A program made the translations under genes and the position numbers. Of a DNA stretch of 64,000 nt, positions 5,756 through 59,673 are shown piece after piece; position 1 is the first letter of the stretch, and every line of letters begins with the position of its first letter. The stretch comes from a virus, in the IMG/VR virus record IMGVR_UViG_3300022842_000007, positions 1 to 64,000 of that record; one strand, 5' to 3'. The notes under the pieces were generated by a model that ran no database searches, had not been told where the DNA came from, and saw only the letters and a list, made by a program, of their open reading frames with translations.

Positions 5756-8700
5756 ATGCTTAGAGACGTATTTTATTTCGGTGAAAAACCAAATGTTCAT
5801 CCTAGAGAACAACATGTAAAAGATATTGATGTAGCCCGTCAATTATCGACTACCTTACATTTTTGGATAATAGATGAGTTCTGTGAATACGCAAATTTTG
5901 ATTGGGAATTCGATTTTGATTTCTTACCTGACGAAGATGTTTGGGCTGAAGAACATAATAACATCTGGCCAAGCAAACATCAAAAAGATTCTGGTACATG
6001 GCTGTGTCCAAAAGAAGAGAGTCAAATACGAGTCTATCGGGCTGACGTTAATCCAATCAATCGTAAACGAGAACCCAATGCATATTGGAAGTTTTTAGAT
6101 ACAGTAGATAAAAAGTCAATTGATTTTTCATGGCATCCAGATCCAACTGATCCACCTTACATCTATAAGTGGGGTAGTAAATTTGCTCCGGTTGAACTTG
6201 CCACGGTATTAGAATACCATACCCCTGGCAACAACGGTGTTGTCAAGAACTTAAACACAACTATATCATTATTACCTAACAATGATTGCATAACAGTGCA
6301 TCAACCTATTAACACCGATCGATGGGATATGTCTTGGCGCCCAGATCCAATGGATGAACCATACATATACGTTTGGGGCAATAAATGGATATCTGGTGAA
6401 CTAGAACCTACGCTTACATATACTGTAGAAGGCGCAACTGAACACAAATACATGGCGAATGCAATTCCTGTACTACCGCAAGATGATCGTTGGGAAATAC
6501 TCACCGCTATCGACGAAGAAACATTTGATTTTAGTTGGAGACCTGATCCAAGAGAGCCTGCATTTATATATGTGTTTGGAAATCATCTATACGAAGGCTC
6601 GATAATGCCTACCTTAAGATACACAATGCCTGATGCTACTGAAATTAAGTATGTATATGATATCAAACCCACATTAGCACAAAAGCCAGAATTGTTTGAA
6701 CATTTAGAAGACATTGATCAAACGTTATTTGACTATTCATGGAGACCTAATCCAACCGCACCTGCATATATGTATGCATGGGGCAATCAATGGAATGAAG
6801 CACAAGATAAAGTTAGTGTGCAGTTTGTAGTAGAAGATGCAACTGAATATCAATACATGGAAGAAAAGACAACTCGCAAAGCATGTAAAGATAACTGGAT
6901 TGTACCTACTAACTTAGACACCCGTGCATTTGATTTTAGTTGGGAGCCTAGCCCTAACGAACCAGCAATGATACATGAATTCGGTACTCAGTGGCAAAAG
7001 ACAGGTGGTCCTCAATATCATGTTGAAGGGGCAGTTGAAATAAAATATGAAAATGCATCTAAGGCTAACATATTACCTTCAGATAAGAGTAACTGGACAG
7101 TACCAAGTAACATAGACGCAGATACGTTTGACTTTAGTTGGCATCCAGATGCAACAAGCCCTCCCTATGTCTATCATTTCCCAACGCAATGGGCATTAAG
7201 TGGTGGTCCTCAATATCATGTTGATGGTGCGGATGAAACAAAGTATGTAGAAGATCAAGTGGCAAAGGCAAAAGCAAACAAAGAATATTGGGAATTTGAT
7301 TCTACTATCCTCGACGAGGGTGATTTTGATTACTCTTGGCATCCCTATGCGGAAGATGAACCATTCATCTATCAGTTTGGTACACAACACCAGAAAACAG
7401 GTGGCCACAAATACATGACGCCAGGTACACATGAAGGCAGTGCAGTCAAATACATTGATCCTCGTATTGCAAAATCAAAAAGATTACCTGATCCTAACAA
7501 CAGATACTGGGGTACTTTAGGTAATTATAAAATTAAAGACTTTGATTATTCATGGCACCATGATGAAACAGACGAAGCATTTGTTTATCACTTTGGTAAC
7601 AAATATTATTCAGCACAAGAAATGCCGACGGTCGAGTACAGAGTTCCTAATGCAGTTCAAATTAAGTATATCAATTCTATTGTGGCAGAACTACAACCTG
7701 TTAAAGAAGGCTGGACAATCCCTGCTGACATAGATGATTCAGAGTTTGACTATAGTTGGAGACCTTCTCCGTTAGAAGATCAAGCATACGTTTATCAGTT
7801 CGGTACTCAGTGGCAGAAAACAGATGGTCCTAGTTATAAAGTCGAAGGTGCAACTGACATTAAGTATGTCGAGGGCAATACTGCTAAGAAAAAACCTGAT
7901 CAATTGAAGTGGGATATCCCAATTGGCATTGACGTTGATGATTTTGATTTCTCGTGGCACCCAGACAGTACAGAGACATCTCCATTCATCTACCAGTTCG
8001 GCACTCAGTGGGCACTAACAGGCGGTCCTAGCTACATTGTCAAAGACGCCACTGAAGTTAAGTATGTTGAAGAACCTATTGCTAAAACATTAGTAAACAT
8101 GGAGAACTGGGAAGTCCCGACCGACGTAGATAGTTTCGACTTCTCTTGGCATCCTTATACACAAGACGATCCGTTCATCTATCAATTTGGTACACAACAT
8201 CAAAAGACTGATGGTCCTAGATACATCGTACCGGGCGCAACACAAGTCAAGTATGTTGACACTAGAATTATTAAAGCACGTAAACTAGCAAACAGTAAAA
8301 GAATGCATTGGGTTATACCCGATGATTGTGATGTCGATACGTTTGATTTCTCGTGGCATCCAGACAGTACAGCAAGCCCTGCAATCTATCAATTTGGTAG
8401 TGTAACAGGTAAAGATGATGGTCCGAAGTATATTACACCAGGCAACTCAGGTGAAGTTTTGTATTTGCAAAATATTAAATCTGATGGTGTTATGCCGGCA
8501 GAACTAGAAGTATACTTCATCAAGACTACACTCGAAGATTTGATAGCAGAACATAAAGGCGAAGTCTTCTGGGCAATCAACATAGACCTAGTGTACACTG
8601 ACTTTGATTTCTCATGGCGTCCTGATGTCTATCAGTCAAATTACATTCATGCATTCGGTTCTAAAGATAACATAGATACACAAACCTATTTTGTTAATGC

Positions 8701-10507
8701 TGTTATTTGGGAAAAAGGATTTAAGAACATAAACTACATTGAAACTGAGGCTGTTGCTATTAAAGCAAACTTAGATATGTTCTACGTAGATAGAGGTAAC
8801 AAAGAATCGAAAGAACGATTTGAGCAACTGCAACTTCGTTATCCTAATATACAGAAAACAAGATACTTAAACTCATGGGTAGAAACTACTCGTAGGTGTA
8901 TAAACAGATCAACAACCACATTGCTTTGGGTGTTAAATTCTGAGTTAGATTATGCAGAGTTTGATTTTGATTATTATCCCAACCCATGGCAGATGAAGAT
9001 GGTACACGTGTTCGGAACTCAATGGTCACATTGGGGGACAACTTACCTTGTCAGTAGAGAAACATTTAACGAAGATACGAAATTCATTCGTGTTATCGAA
9101 CATTTAAATAATCTAAACTTTGTCAAAGAGATTCGTGCCAAAGCAACAGAATGTGTATATGATGTTGTCGTGGTAGATCATGGCAATAAAGAAACAGACG
9201 CGGTTGTTAAACAACTTCAAGAGAAAGCACCAAGACAGCGGCTGACTACTATCGAACACGATACTGATTACCTTGTCACGTTAAAAAATATCATAGCCAA
9301 ATTACCTAAACGCAAGGAGCATTATATATGGATAGCATCATCTATTTGCGATTACAACGACTTTGATCTATCCTATATATGTGATCCGTTTGCACGTGAC
9401 CAGTTACATGTCTTTCCTAGCGACAAACAAAAGTTTGGAGATACATTCTTTATTGACGTAAACAAGACACGTGAAATTATCGATGGTATGACATCATTAG
9501 AAGATTATGAGAAGATAAACTACAATCAAACACTGCGTACACATCGCCTAAGGCCTCCTGTAATCATTTCTCCAGGTGATACGCACATGAAGACGATCAA
9601 AGACATTACTAACTTTCCTTATGCAGTATTAGTAGCAGAAACAGACAAAGATATACAAGTGGTAGACGAAGAACCAATGTCATTGTGGTCACAAGATAAA
9701 AAGAACATCATCGTCACTTCAACTGGTGCAACACGAATCATTGTTCCTCGCGAAGTTAAGGATGTGGTCAAGAAAGAACTGTATGAATATCCATATATCA
9801 AGAATGCGAATAGACTTGCGTTATCTAAACCAATGGACATAGTGTTTCTCTCTAATGGAGAAACAGGTGCAGAGGAAAACTGGGAGCATCTGCAAAAGAT
9901 AACCAAGAACTTACCGAATCGAGTAGTAAGAGTTGATGGCGTTGATGGCAGAGTAAAAGCATATCATGCCTCAGCAGAAGCAAGCGAGACACCATGGGCA
10001 TTTACAGTCTTTGCTAAACTTAAAGTCTCGCCCAAGTTTGACTTTAACTGGCAACCAGATCGTATGCAAAGACAGAAACATTATATCTTTGAAGCAAAGA
10101 ATCCAGTTACTGGTCTAGTCTATGGACATCAGGCTATGATTGCATACAACAAAGAACTAACTCTTAGCAACTATGGTTATGGCCTAGACTTCACACTAGA
10201 TGATGACCATGCAAGTATTTCGTTGTTGTCGGGCATTGCAAAGTACAACACTGATGCATTCTCAACGTGGCGCACAGCATTTAGAGAAGTGATTAAACTA
10301 TTGTGTGATGATACAGAGATAAGCAAGACTCGTTTAGATACATGGTTGAATATAGCAGATCCAGATCAGCCTTTCTTCCAAGAATCGATTAAGGGTGCAA
10401 TATGTGGAGAAGAATACTTTGAAGAAGTCGATGGAGATTTCGAGAAGTTGCGTTTAAGTTATGAATGGAAATGGCTTGCAGAAAGGTATGCAGAAGTTTC
10501 TTATTAA
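5756..10507 (+). CDS. Giant tandem-repeat protein with degenerate GT-A-like modules
   Basis: Twelve ~67-70-aa repeats (FDFSWHPD...YQFG...GP.Y...GA...KY) followed by GT-like modules (DIVFLSNGE...RVDGVDG...WRTAFREVIKL). Confidence 0.75.
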   Translation: MLRDVFYFGEKPNVHPREQHVKDIDVARQLSTTLHFWIIDEFCEYANFDWEFDFDFLPDEDVWAEEHNNIWPSKHQKDSGTWLCPKEESQIRVYRADVNPINRKREPNAYWKFLDTVDKKSIDFSWHPDPTDPPYIYKWGSKFAPVELATVLEYHTPGNNGVVKNLNTTISLLPNNDCITVHQPINTDRWDMSWRPDPMDEPYIYVWGNKWISGELEPTLTYTVEGATEHKYMANAIPVLPQDDRWEILTAIDEETFDFSWRPDPREPAFIYVFGNHLYEGSIMPTLRYTMPDATEIKYVYDIKPTLAQKPELFEHLEDIDQTLFDYSWRPNPTAPAYMYAWGNQWNEAQDKVSVQFVVEDATEYQYMEEKTTRKACKDNWIVPTNLDTRAFDFSWEPSPNEPAMIHEFGTQWQKTGGPQYHVEGAVEIKYENASKANILPSDKSNWTVPSNIDADTFDFSWHPDATSPPYVYHFPTQWALSGGPQYHVDGADETKYVEDQVAKAKANKEYWEFDSTILDEGDFDYSWHPYAEDEPFIYQFGTQHQKTGGHKYMTPGTHEGSAVKYIDPRIAKSKRLPDPNNRYWGTLGNYKIKDFDYSWHHDETDEAFVYHFGNKYYSAQEMPTVEYRVPNAVQIKYINSIVAELQPVKEGWTIPADIDDSEFDYSWRPSPLEDQAYVYQFGTQWQKTDGPSYKVEGATDIKYVEGNTAKKKPDQLKWDIPIGIDVDDFDFSWHPDSTETSPFIYQFGTQWALTGGPSYIVKDATEVKYVEEPIAKTLVNMENWEVPTDVDSFDFSWHPYTQDDPFIYQFGTQHQKTDGPRYIVPGATQVKYVDTRIIKARKLANSKRMHWVIPDDCDVDTFDFSWHPDSTASPAIYQFGSVTGKDDGPKYITPGNSGEVLYLQNIKSDGVMPAELEVYFIKTTLEDLIAEHKGEVFWAINIDLVYTDFDFSWRPDVYQSNYIHAFGSKDNIDTQTYFVNAVIWEKGFKNINYIETEAVAIKANLDMFYVDRGNKESKERFEQLQLRYPNIQKTRYLNSWVETTRRCINRSTTTLLWVLNSELDYAEFDFDYYPNPWQMKMVHVFGTQWSHWGTTYLVSRETFNEDTKFIRVIEHLNNLNFVKEIRAKATECVYDVVVVDHGNKETDAVVKQLQEKAPRQRLTTIEHDTDYLVTLKNIIAKLPKRKEHYIWIASSICDYNDFDLSYICDPFARDQLHVFPSDKQKFGDTFFIDVNKTREIIDGMTSLEDYEKINYNQTLRTHRLRPPVIISPGDTHMKTIKDITNFPYAVLVAETDKDIQVVDEEPMSLWSQDKKNIIVTSTGATRIIVPREVKDVVKKELYEYPYIKNANRLALSKPMDIVFLSNGETGAEENWEHLQKITKNLPNRVVRVDGVDGRVKAYHASAEASETPWAFTVFAKLKVSPKFDFNWQPDRMQRQKHYIFEAKNPVTGLVYGHQAMIAYNKELTLSNYGYGLDFTLDDDHASISLLSGIAKYNTDAFSTWRTAFREVIKLLCDDTEISKTRLDTWLNIADPDQPFFQESIKGAICGEEYFEEVDGDFEKLRLSYEWKWLAERYAEVSY
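6085..8470 (+). repeat. Array of 12 imperfect ~200-bp coding repeats
   Basis: D(F/Y/M)SW(H/R/E)(P/H) recurs 12 times at regular spacing; boundaries approximate. Confidence 0.85.
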
Positions 10508-10510
10508 AGT

Positions 10511-11758
10511 TTAATCGTACTCACCATATAGGTCTTCTTCTGCCCCGTTTTCAGGGTTATCATCTGCGTAGTGTGGTAAATATGTGTTATAAGCCGTAAC
10601 AAGTTCTTTATGCCTGTCTGCAATCTCTTGTGGCAAGTCCATCTCCTCATCTTGTGGGTCCATAATATTACTGTAGGCCCACTCTACGCCTTTATTTCCC
10701 TCTGGAGTGACAGCATACACTACCAGTTGTAATTTATTAACCTCGGTAGCCTGATTATCAGGTTCTCCGCAACTGTCGCATTCTTTAAATCCATATTTCT
10801 CAAGATCATCCCGCGTCGTCCCATCCCGGTATGTTAATTTCTTTACTATCTCACCACCACAATACTGGCATGATACATCAACTTTTATTGGTGGCGTAAA
10901 ATTGAATATAAGGATAGACTGGCCTTCAAATGGTTTGCTGTATTCATCGAAATAATTGGTTGATTCGGTTGACGCAGTACACCATTGAGTACCTTGTCCG
11001 TAATAACAGGCGGCTGCTTCGTCCTTCGGCCAATAAACAGTCATTACGTCATCTTTGTAAAGAATTTGTGCATCGCCCTTACCCAGTTTAGCTGGTTTGC
11101 CGTACTCTTTATGAAGTAGTTGAGCCCATCTTGAAAACGCCACAGCAGTGGGGTATTGTCGAATATCTCTCTTGTCAACAGGTAACCTTGCTTTCATGCG
11201 TTCAAATTTACCCAGTCCATCAGCTAATGTTGCTCGACCATCTTCTATGTTTGGAAAGTTTCCGGTACCAAACTCGTTTGAAGAGATATACCATTTAATG
11301 ATTTGTAATGTGTACTTTTTACTCTGAGTTGGATCGAATTGTTCAAGTATGCTTATTAAGGCAGTCGCTATCTGATCTTGTAATTCCGATATTGCTTGAT
11401 TAACATACCCTTCTATCGCTTTATTCATAGATCCATCTAATACGTTAAGTGCTTGGTTGTCTGAGGTTCCATGATCCATTAGTCTATTATAGACGTATGG
11501 ATGAAGTATGTGCAATGCCGTAACTTGATAATCATTCAACGTACTTTTCCAAATTATTGCGCGAGATTCATCTGAGTTAGGGGCACTTCTAAAAAAGTTC
11601 CTCAACTCTGAATCATCATCGCCAGCGGCCGGAAGATCGCCTAGGTGATTTGCAAAGCTTTTTAGGTCTAGTTTCTGTACGATTTTATTGCCAAGTTTCT
11701 GTACTGTCGCTTGAGTGTTGTACTCTAATAATATATGTTTGAATTCATAATAACGCAT
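10511..11758 (-). CDS. Hypothetical protein, probably head-packaged, with a WCTA motif and an inserted Zn ribbon
   Basis: N-terminus MRYYEFKHILLE; AACYYGQGTQWCTAS; CQYC...CDSC; TAAATA 4 nt upstream of ATG. Confidence 0.7.
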   Translation of the reverse strand: MRYYEFKHILLEYNTQATVQKLGNKIVQKLDLKSFANHLGDLPAAGDDDSELRNFFRSAPNSDESRAIIWKSTLNDYQVTALHILHPYVYNRLMDHGTSDNQALNVLDGSMNKAIEGYVNQAISELQDQIATALISILEQFDPTQSKKYTLQIIKWYISSNEFGTGNFPNIEDGRATLADGLGKFERMKARLPVDKRDIRQYPTAVAFSRWAQLLHKEYGKPAKLGKGDAQILYKDDVMTVYWPKDEAAACYYGQGTQWCTASTESTNYFDEYSKPFEGQSILIFNFTPPIKVDVSCQYCGGEIVKKLTYRDGTTRDDLEKYGFKECDSCGEPDNQATEVNKLQLVVYAVTPEGNKGVEWAYSNIMDPQDEEMDLPQEIADRHKELVTAYNTYLPHYADDNPENGAEEDLYGEYD

Positions 11759-11833
11759 TATGTATTTAGCTAAAACAGTTTACCCAGAAAGATTGTTATT
11801 GTATAGGATCAATGTATAATGCTAAATAGATTC

Positions 11834-12124
11834 GATTGTTGTATGAAGTGAAGTGAAAGGTGTTTTGGACGCCGGTTCGACTCCGGCCATCTCCACCAAA
11901 AGCATATTGGATAAGGGTAGTATGCTTTTGATGGGGATGCAACGGGATTCGACAGAGCAATTATTAATGGAACGGACAACACAGTAGGCGATGACTGTAA
12001 ATCAAGCAGAAACTATAATTGACAAAAACAATTATGCAATGGAAGATTACGCACTAGCTGCCTAATCCCCCGAGGCTAATCACCTCGTCACCAAACGATA
12101 GAGGGGGAATCCAAGTTCCCCCTC
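11834..12124 (+). ncRNA. ssrA: Circularly permuted (two-piece) tmRNA
   Basis: The acceptor piece comes first: T-arm GCCGG-TTCGACT-CCGGC then CATCTCC-A-CCA ending 11898. A hairpin intervening segment follows, then the 5' end GGGGATG (11933) with GGATTCGAC. The acceptor stem has the G3-U70 Ala determinant. Tag ORF 12021-12065 encodes DKNNYAMEDYALAA*; terminal hairpin 12101-12124. Outer ends approximate. Confidence 0.92.
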
Positions 12125-12164
12125 GCCTATTTCTCACTCCCACTACCCAGCGATAAATACTTGC

Positions 12165-13388
12165 ATGAATATACTTGAACTGGAAAAATTTAAGATCGAA
12201 GATGCAATCAACTTCCACGATGAATACAATCCTTGGTTATTTGACGGCGACAAACTAAAACCTGTCATTAAGAAGCAACTAGAAACTATTTCAAATGATT
12301 TTGTTGAATACATGGGAATACCTGATCTCGCATTAGAAGACATCATCATCACAGGATCTAATGTAGCATACACATACACACCTCACAGTGACATTGATTT
12401 ACATTTGCTTGTAGATTTTAGTAAATTGTCAGACTCAGATGTGTATCGAGAATTATTCAATGCGAAGAAATCTCTCTATAATAATACGTATGACATTACT
12501 ATCAGAGATATTACGGTTGAACTCTATGTTCAAGATACAGCACAAGCCCACACCAGTTTAGGTGAATACAGTTTATTCCAAGACAAATTCACCCGTATAC
12601 CTACAAAGAAACGCGCAAACTTAGATGAAATCTCAGCCGCCGCAAAGTTTGAAAAATTAGAAGCAATGGCGATTGAAGGATTAGCATCTCCTGACATGGA
12701 ACGAGTTAATCGAGTGCTTGGAATCATTAAACGATATCGTCAAGCAGGATTAGATACTCATGGCGAGTTTGGTCCAGAGAATTTGGCCTTTAAGGCAATC
12801 AGATCAAAGGGATATTTTCGAGCGTTACACGATCATAAGAACAAATTAAGAGCAGATCAACTATCACTCGAAGAAGAATTCTTCCGCAGAACGTTCGAAG
12901 AATCACTTGGTGTTGGTTTGATTGAAGAAAGGCCCAATATTCCTGCATCGACTGCCGATGATCTCGCAATGAAATATGAGGTAAGTAAAAGAGAAGTAGC
13001 AAAACAAATAGACCTGGGCACTAGAATTGAAATGGCATCTAATCCTAACGTTACTGCTATCTCCACTAATCTTAGAAGAGAGCAAGCAAGGGCAATTGCG
13101 ATTGCAAATATAAACATAAAACTTGAATACTATCCAAAAATGATCGTTTTTAGAAAAGAGGTTGCTAGATTAAAAAGAGAACAGCCTAACACTGATACAG
13201 ACGATAATGAAATGATGGAAGCATCTGGTTATATACCAAGTGAAAAGCAAAAGAATGATCCTAGATGGTCATATGCGTTGACCAAAGATGTCAGACCCGA
13301 CACCATGCAAAAAGGTGCCAAAGCAATGGGACTCGGCAATATTTCACGTGCAGGTGTTCCTCCTCTCTTGCGTCCCGGCAAGAAATAA
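12165..13388 (+). CDS. Pol-beta-superfamily nucleotidyltransferase with extra C-terminal modules
   Basis: ITGSN...SDIDLHL (hGS...DxD) and VELYVQ; TAAATA 5 nt before ATG. Confidence 0.75.
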   Translation: MNILELEKFKIEDAINFHDEYNPWLFDGDKLKPVIKKQLETISNDFVEYMGIPDLALEDIIITGSNVAYTYTPHSDIDLHLLVDFSKLSDSDVYRELFNAKKSLYNNTYDITIRDITVELYVQDTAQAHTSLGEYSLFQDKFTRIPTKKRANLDEISAAAKFEKLEAMAIEGLASPDMERVNRVLGIIKRYRQAGLDTHGEFGPENLAFKAIRSKGYFRALHDHKNKLRADQLSLEEEFFRRTFEESLGVGLIEERPNIPASTADDLAMKYEVSKREVAKQIDLGTRIEMASNPNVTAISTNLRREQARAIAIANINIKLEYYPKMIVFRKEVARLKREQPNTDTDDNEMMEASGYIPSEKQKNDPRWSYALTKDVRPDTMQKGAKAMGLGNISRAGVPPLLRPGKK

Positions 13389-13393
13389 CTCCA

Positions 13394-13594
13394 TTGGCCA
13401 GGCGTGGCAGGAAAGTACCTGCGATAGATCCTGCGACTATTCAATCACCGTGCATTAGTATATGCGTCTTTAACGAAGATGACTACTGTGTCGGTTGTAA
13501 GCGATCAATGAACGAAGTAGGTGATTGGCATCGATACTCTGAAGAGATGAAAGCGGCCGTGACTTTAGACCTCATTGAAAGAAAATTGCAATAA
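13394..13594 (+). CDS. DUF1289-like small Cys protein
   Basis: IQSPCISIC...YCVGCKRSMNEVGDW; probable TTG start at 13394. Confidence 0.75.
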   Translation: MARRGRKVPAIDPATIQSPCISICVFNEDDYCVGCKRSMNEVGDWHRYSEEMKAAVTLDLIERKLQ

Positions 13595-44453: not shown

Positions 44454-44546
44454 AGTCTAATAGTATTTAACTCTGGAAAATAATTGGTGTAATTTCTTTA
44501 GATTGGGTTAAAGATAAATATAGTTAATAAAGGAGATTAGAATGCC

Positions 44547-59643: not shown

Positions 59644-59673
59644 ACAGTTATTTATTAGGTGAACAAAGGTGCC

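Follow-up and report, generated by a model that had tools for sequence, protein, structure and literature searches.

The 64,000-nucleotide stretch of viral DNA analysed here (the window) very probably carries a genuine, intact, beta-type two-piece tmRNA gene that has been vertically inherited in an uncultured jumbo-phage lineage with genomes of about 350-400 kb. The sole RNA gene that ARAGORN finds in the 64-kb window is a permuted tmRNA at 11806-12156, with the tag DKNNYAMEDYALAA. A locus belongs to an Rfam family when it spans the full covariance model and its bit score reaches the curated gathering threshold; the scores given here are those left after clan competition. With cmscan, the locus reaches 129.4 bits against a cut-off of 47 for RF04321 (tmRNA_permuted; E 5e-25, model positions 1-213, full length) and 112.7 bits against a cut-off of 84 for RF01850 (beta_tmRNA; E 2e-33, model positions 1-331, full length). 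Both gathering thresholds are passed, so the locus is a member of both families by score, and the match by ARAGORN and two Rfam models is far beyond chance.

An earlier note on this DNA, made from the letters alone, had proposed a circularly permuted two-piece phage tmRNA at this place. That proposal is borne out by the ARAGORN call, which returns the same tag as the note had read, and by both covariance models, which score above threshold. The sequence read from 11600 to 12400 contains every feature that the note had listed, each where the note had put it, including the promoter-like boxes TATAAT (11815-11820) and TAAATA (11823-11828). The gene order is permuted: the CCA end at 11898 lies upstream of the GGGGATG start at 11933, with a 34-nt spacer between them. 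Acceptor piece, spacer and coding piece follow one another in the same order in 12 relatives, where the spacer measures 12-85 nt. The predicted parts of the gene are as follows.

11782-11820, + strand: sigma-70-like promoter, with ACCC at 11782-11785, -35 TTGTTA at 11793-11798, a 16-nt spacer and -10 TATAAT at 11815-11820
11823-11828, + strand: TAAATA box, 8 nt before the first helix, a candidate second (late-type) promoter
11829-11898, + strand: acceptor piece, with a predicted 5' end (Rfam alignments, covariation in P2 and T-arm)
11837-11867, + strand: 5' strand of P2 (Rfam alignment)
11871-11887, + strand: T-arm (Rfam alignment)
11888-11894, + strand: 3' acceptor strand CATCTCC (sequence)
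11895, + strand: discriminator A73
11896-11898, + strand: encoded CCA
11899-11932, + strand: intervening segment of 34 nt, predicted to be discarded (fold)
11933-12020, + strand: 5' part of the coding piece (Rfam alignment)
11933-11939, + strand: 5' acceptor strand GGGGATG, with 7 canonical pairs to CATCTCC
11948-11953, + strand: conserved UUCGAC
11953-11981, + strand: 3' strand of P2 (Rfam alignment)
11981/11982-12007, + strand: PK1 (Rfam alignment, covariation)
12015-12020, + strand: resume context AUAAUU (sequence)
12021-12065, + strand: tag frame GAC ... TAA, encoding DKNNYAMEDYALAA (ARAGORN)
12071-12100, + strand: minimal PK2, with stem 1 CGAGG/CCUCG (12071-12075 with 12083-12087) and stem 2 AUC/GAU (12079-12081 with 12097-12099)
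12101-12133, + strand: terminal hairpin (12101-12124) plus GCCUAUUUC, probably an intrinsic terminator that forms the 3' end of the coding piece

The tRNA-like domain contains G3:U70, A73, CCA and a T-arm of 5 bp whose loop reads UUCGANU. The acceptor stem, which has alanine identity, has canonical pairs at 7 of 7 positions including G3:U70 (11935:11892). Anchor-based extraction shows that G3:U70 is invariant in 12 of 12 relatives and that pair 5 changes from A-U in the window to G-C. The T-arm is 100% paired among relatives, with one CG to GC switch. A long P2, the helix by which the two pieces are joined, is also present; in it the outer and inner segments (helices 1 and 2) are paired with compensatory changes, while the middle is poorly paired and contains the non-canonical pairs flagged by cmscan.

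Covariation places one pseudoknot before the tag and one after it. Stem 1 of PK1 covaries within the clade to which the window belongs, and stem 2, which is invariant in the clade, takes the forms GAU/AUC, CUGA/UCAG, CCGA/UCGG and CCUA/UAGG across the family, which amounts to covariation; its mean best pseudoknot score in the wider family is 7.3 compared to 3.4 for shuffled sequences. Stem 2 of PK1 and stem 2 of PK2 are each only 3 bp long in the window, and the register of the former is ambiguous. In PK2, stem 2 reads AUC/GAU in the window and GUC/GAU, GGUC/GACC or GGU(A)/(U)ACC in relatives, and the sixth pair of stem 1 alternates between U-A and C-G among relatives. Judged by these comparisons, the pairing of the post-tag loop with a downstream triplet is a small H-type pseudoknot, PK2. 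The terminal hairpin has a stem of 8-10 bp among relatives, also with compensatory changes.

When 12 sequences are aligned with MAFFT, pairing reaches 98.7% in the five helices that stay in register, and both sides have changed in 7 of their 25 pairs. Their covariation score is 0.239 compared to 0.106 for shuffled alignments, none of 500 shuffles reaches 0.239, and slid partners score at most 0.13. MAFFT misplaced the 5' acceptor strand, PK2 stem 2 and some terminal hairpins, which produced false mismatches, and anchor-based extraction was used for these instead. Minimum-free-energy folding of the pieces or of the precursor recovers the acceptor stem, the spacer hairpin and the terminal hairpin; the T-arm and P2 are not recovered by such folding alone. 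The structure calls rest on covariance models and comparison rather than on minimum-free-energy folding.

The spacer is predicted to fold into a 13-bp hairpin at 11897-11930 (AAAAGCATA.../...TATGCTTTT, -14.9 kcal/mol) that prolongs the acceptor helix. Among relatives, the spacer is 12, 28, 34 or 85 nt long and not conserved in sequence, with a hairpin when it is long and none at 12 nt. This freedom in length and sequence fits a segment that is discarded. The predicted ends of the two pieces (from about 11829-11835 to 11898, and from 11933 to about 12124-12133) agree with the sizes of approximately 65 and 190 nt that had been estimated for them.

The predicted layout, consisting of tRNA-like domain, P2, PK1, tag, PK2 and closing hairpin, is the standard two-piece set. 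Two-piece tmRNAs typically retain PK1 and PK2 only (PMC3985003). The earlier note had treated the compact body, considered too short for pseudoknots 2-4, as a peculiarity. It is instead the usual two-piece layout: the full 331-position beta model aligns and a minimal PK2 is present. The length given by ARAGORN, 351 nt, lies within the range of 304-406 nt found for 77 other unique permuted genes.

The tag frame at 12021-12065 (+) reads GAC AAA AAC AAT TAT GCA ATG GAA GAT TAC GCA CTA GCT GCC TAA. The peptide DKNNYAMEDYALAA is encoded at 12021-12062 and the stop TAA lies at 12063-12065. The tag of its own ending in ...YALAA that had been read from the letters is thus an actual reading frame, with which ARAGORN agrees, and upstream context, resume codon, ...YALAA end and stop are all in place. 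The A-U-A at -6 to -4 of the resume codon matches the U85/A86 context of E. coli.

A small clade of phages has in common with the window a GAC (Asp) resume codon instead of the usual GCN. The Asp-first tags of this clade, all DNNYEMEDYALAA, are found in four IMG/VR contigs (L053, L123, L124 and L125) and in 8 further distinct metagenome contigs; a tag of 28 residues is found in L033, a more distant member. Within the clade, the final ALAA is spelled GCA CTA GCT GCC, GCC TTA GCG GCC, GCC CTA GCG GCC or GCA CTA GCT GCA with no change of amino acid, and GAT/GAC and TAA/TAG also vary. The amino acid differences among the clade tags are limited to one Ala/Glu change and one 3-nt in-frame (Lys) indel. 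The variation is mostly synonymous and the sole indel is in frame, as in a translated sequence, and the tag peptide is under purifying selection. An Asp resume codon is rare, with 3 sequences in a 2005 comparative set that included ordinary bacterial tmRNAs (PMC1168896). The traits that set the gene apart are modest: an Asp resume codon in a small phage clade, a position apart from any tRNA cluster, and apparent dual promoters.

A promoter scan finds that TTGTTA-16-TATAAT matches 10 of 12 consensus positions, and the -35/-10 region that belongs to the RF01850 model itself aligns at this sigma-70-like promoter. The whole promoter block is kept in L053, and lies about 100 nt farther upstream in L123. 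As for the TAAATA box, CTAAATA occurs at the same position, next to the first helix, in six relatives (L053, L123, L250, L259, L153 and L192), and the box is absent from that position in five (L125, L196, L179, L200 and L169). CTAAATA is not enriched in the window overall (12 found compared to 15 expected); what is informative is solely where it lies with respect to gene starts. In the window, 7 of 70 TAAATA occurrences (10%) lie 4-10 nt upstream of ORF starts, compared to 0-4.6% for hexamers of the same composition. Among the ORFs preceded in this way are that of the terminase and those on either side of the tmRNA gene. These TAAATA sites, and those of a further promoter-like pattern, lie at the following positions.

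11763-11768 (- strand), 12154, 26558, 28140, 50504, 59649-59654 (- strand) and 44464-44469 (- strand): TAAATA ahead of the start codon (ATG) in seven ORFs with 80 aa or more
20678, 36712, 39250, 42071, 45353 and others, + strand: CC-N7-TTG-N20-TATAAT

The seven TAAATA-preceded ORFs leave no space for a Shine-Dalgarno sequence before the ATG. The position of TAAATA suggests a candidate promoter class that would give leaderless mRNAs, that of the terminase included. It is plausible that the tmRNA would be expressed from two promoter classes. At the other end of the gene, a terminator scan finds a terminator-like hairpin at 12101-12124 followed by GCCTATTTCT. The CC-N7-TTG-N20-TATAAT pattern, allowing at most one mismatch, occurs 8 times in the window compared to 1.9 expected, and none of 100 shuffles reaches 8; the promoter of the tmRNA gene follows this scheme too (ACCC-N7-TTG), but its spacer is shorter by one base. 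The small ORFs on the minus strand of the tmRNA locus were considered as well and are spurious.

The IMG/VR virus record from which the window is taken is 92,110 bp long, with a completeness of 26% (CheckV). The record encodes a large terminase, and its nearest cultured relatives by this protein are PA5oct and Phosso (48% identity) and Atu_ph07 (48% over 80% of the protein), followed by jumbo phages of Vibrio, Yersinia, Erwinia and Serratia at about 40-42% identity. A megablast search with 20 kb of the window gives no nucleotide match to deposited phage genomes, and the phage therefore has no close cultured relative. No tRNA gene is detectable in the 92-kb record.

The junction-spanning pattern of the gene is found in at least 119 IMG/VR contigs, and ARAGORN calls a permuted tmRNA in 117 of 119. 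L053 is 79% identical to the tmRNA region of the window over 355 nt. In at least 11 related contigs, the gene is found at this locus, flanked by the same pair of genes. The divergent upstream neighbour at 10511-11758 (-) is 31-36% identical across the clade, and the downstream neighbour at 12165-13388 (+) is 56-88% identical across at least 11 contigs. Farther out, the C-terminus of a 1,583-residue protein encoded at 5756-10507 (+) is 88-91% identical in the 5 contigs that reach far enough, and an AAA ATPase flanking the locus is 76-82% identical in the 7 contigs that do so. The gene has thus held its place while the proteins on either side retain only 31-91% identity, which argues for its usefulness to the phage.

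Several features of these surroundings can be added. The neighbouring genes evolve at very different rates, as seen for the product of 10511-11758 (31-36%) and the C-terminus of that of 5756-10507 (88-91%). The downstream gene at 12165-13388 has sub-threshold matches to Pol-beta-type nucleotidyltransferases (NTP_transf_2, E 0.025; MTPAP-like, 0.05; Polbeta, 0.09) and also matches PHROG 36119, a group with unknown function. In L053, an extra gene is inserted between the tmRNA gene and this nucleotidyltransferase-like gene. The end of the downstream gene is overlapped by a 109-residue ORF at 13265-13594 (+), for which the match is to DUF1289 (PF06945; E 6.6e-17).

Compensatory structure, the evolution of the tag, the free spacer and the fixed locus together indicate a gene under selection as a tmRNA. 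Reviews describe the maturation of two-piece tmRNAs from a single transcript (PMC3985003, PMC11915505), and the maturation steps are known from Caulobacter (Keiler 2000, as cited in PMC3985003). From such known two-piece tmRNAs we infer the steps of processing, charging, delivery and tagging for the phage RNA. One precursor would be made from the sigma-70-like promoter, with the TAAATA box next to it as a possible second source. Cleavage by RNase P would occur 5' of G11933, the 3' trailer would be trimmed to CCA11898, and the 34-nt spacer hairpin would be discarded, leaving the acceptor and coding pieces base-paired. Host AlaRS would then charge the RNA, and host SmpB together with EF-Tu would bring it to stalled ribosomes. 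Here reliance on host SmpB is assumed, the phage fragments searched for SmpB being 4-26% complete. Translation would resume at GAC, appending (A)DKNNYAMEDYALAA, and ADKNNYAMEDYALAA-tagged proteins would be the expected products of tagging by the phage tmRNA, with the YALAA end targeting them to host ClpXP-type proteolysis. The likely benefit to the phage would be that ribosomes are kept free during infection. The further idea that the phage RNA replaces cleaved host tmRNA is speculation.

Other readings of the gene can be weighed against selection for tagging. The phage RNA could serve chiefly as a decoy, titrating host SmpB or competing with the tmRNA of the host, and so shut down host trans-translation instead of carrying it out. 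A molecule consisting of the tRNA-like domain alone is a strong inhibitor of tmRNA (Mao 2009, as cited in PMC4131195), a domain-only form of this kind exists in phage DS6A (PMC4131195, PMC11915505), and no match to SmpB (PF01668) is found in the 92-kb record, the four clade fragments or the more distant L033, these fragments being 4-26% complete. However, the full coding piece is kept in the phage gene, with four synonymous ALAA spellings, an in-frame indel and a conserved resume context, and both PK1 and PK2 are preserved by covariation. None of these coding-piece features would be needed by a decoy, and this role is very unlikely. The relic reading, in which the gene is not in use by the phage but was left by integration or excision at a host ssrA, or is misassembled host DNA, draws on the fact that ssrA is a common integration site whose fragments are found in prophages (PMC9004378, PMC4131195). 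Against this, ARAGORN and Rfam find a complete gene and not a 3' fragment, the same locus recurs in at least 11 independently assembled contigs, and no integrase is found in the 92-kb record. Moreover, identity to the nearest bacterial tmRNA found is no higher than 75% (over 158 nt), and the G+C content of the gene (0.42) is near that of the surrounding phage DNA (0.39-0.40). The probability of a relic or misassembly is close to nil, both being contradicted by synteny and completeness.

Trans-translation could also take place with a different outcome, if the Asp-first and N-terminally longer tag alters the choice of adaptor or protease, for example by avoiding a host SspB-type adaptor or by feeding a phage-specified pathway; proteins tagged by the phage RNA would then meet a different fate from those tagged by the host. 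The GAC resume codon is conserved in the phage clade and Asp resume codons are rare, and the N-terminal part of the tag is unlike the ANDE.. tags of Alcaligenaceae that have the same PK1 motif. Yet the C-terminal YALAA is an ordinary proteolysis signal, and Asp resume codons are also found in ordinary bacterial tmRNAs (PMC1168896); a different outcome is very unlikely. A slim chance is given to a wider proposal, in which either the Asp-first tag defines a phage-specific branch of trans-translation with its own adaptor or protease choice, or the tmRNA and the downstream nucleotidyltransferase-like gene form a module that would keep the CCA end of the RNA intact against host attack. Tagging for host proteolysis, as in other two-piece tmRNAs, remains the preferred reading.

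The closest known counterparts of the gene are the two-piece tmRNAs of Betaproteobacteria (RF01850; Sharkady and Williams 2004, as cited in PMC3985003, PMC9004378 and PMC11915505), which have the same permuted order, upstream promoter and closing hairpin. The PK1 motif GUAGGCGAUGAC..UAAAUCAAGCA is common to the window gene and to Alcaligenaceae (Advenella, Pelistega, Taylorella, Brackiella), and the exact motif occurs in 28 species genomes, mostly of this family. Bacterial tmRNAs with the motif share 67-75% identity with the window over stretches of up to 234 nt, and the best match among 401 sampled genomes of the order containing Alcaligenaceae is 75% identical over 158 nt. The tag of these bacterial copies is ANDESYALAA in 24 of 26, whereas the window has an Asp resume codon and DKNNYAMEDYALAA. 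Compared to bacterial beta-type tmRNAs, the window gene is phage-encoded, the middle of its P2 is degenerate, and its PK2 is reduced to 5 + 3 bp.

The earlier note had also taken the permuted layout as a hint to the host group. The subtype is beta; as a guide to the host it is weak, the best bacterial match being only 75% identical over 158 nt. The tmRNA subtype of phage Melnitz does not match its host (PMC9004378), and the alpha-type tmRNA of Phosso does match its host. The beta subtype points to the origin of the gene, and is not a reliable guide to the host.

Two-piece tmRNAs in phages are not new, contrary to what the earlier note implied; such genes are published and common. In 18,146 phage genomes, Buchholz et al. 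(2022, PMC9004378) counted 53 two-piece tmRNAs that are unique, and a 2025 tmRNA database holds 79 phage sequences (PMC11915505). Phage-encoded permuted ssrA with its own promoter, as in the window, is described for the OM43 phage Melnitz, pelagimyophages and cyanophages, with the maintenance of hijacked ribosomes as the proposed role (PMC9004378). These phages are mostly marine T4-like myophages, and the ssrA of Melnitz is alphaproteobacteria-like, whereas that of the window is beta-type. In addition, Melnitz has a glutamine riboswitch in the 3' domain of its tmRNA (PMC9004378); no riboswitch is found in the window, where the two tmRNA models are the only Rfam hits.

The Stenotrophomonas phages Marzo, Moby, Mendera and IME-SM1 (Menderavirus) and DLP_6 have tmRNA genes, some of them annotated in GenBank (PMC8928761); these phages were left out of the comparison of subtype with host. 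Marzo and DLP_6 score 94.6 and 103.7 bits with RF01850, above threshold and with the same beta-type permuted model as the window, and their acceptor pieces are 76-81% identical to that of the window. These phages are about 160 kb in size and carry the tmRNA inside tRNA clusters, unlike the window, which is without tRNA genes. The DLP_6 tag is Ala-first and that of Marzo is called as VAANDD..; both end in IAA, and the window tag is Asp-first.

Among five cultured relatives tested, only Phosso has a tmRNA; PA5oct, Atu_ph07, Vibrio 2.275.O and Yersinia fHe-Yen9-04 have none. The tmRNA of Phosso, a Sinorhizobium phage, is permuted like that of the window (113 bits) but alpha-type (RF01849, 108 bits) and about 600-690 nt long. 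One tmRNA is also reported for the Sinorhizobium jumbo phage AP-J-162 (PMC11242549). Mycobacteriophages of the Bxz1 group and Bacillus phage G carry ssrA as well, but in one piece, in standard order and with more pseudoknots, and the tRNA-like domain of phage DS6A stands alone without a tag frame, in contrast to the full coding piece of the window (PMC4131195).

Phage two-piece tmRNAs are thus already published, annotated in GenBank and found by standard tools, and the window adds a beta-type, jumbo-phage example to a long list. The gene is well supported but ordinary and opens no new question. The clade as a whole is a clean natural data set, with a minimal PK2, spacers that vary from 12 to 85 nt and a rare Asp resume codon.

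Three further contigs carry related genes in other settings. In L169 (1582-1906, -), a gene with the DNNYEMEDYALAA tag has an 85-nt structured hairpin spacer and flanks that are not syntenic with the window; a tRNA gene replaces the terminal hairpin, and RNase P could set the 3' end of the coding piece. L276 (CALMJT010000228.1), a 46-kb contig from a MAG labelled Alteromonadales, has a beta-type permuted tmRNA with the tag ANDSTYALAA and 38% G+C over 8 kb, and may be a mis-binned phage or betaproteobacterial contig. L220 (Ga0182745_1000012; 424,529 bp) has a beta-type permuted tmRNA with the tag ANDNVYAAAA and the same PK1 motif as the window, and could be either bacterial or the complete genome of a jumbo phage.
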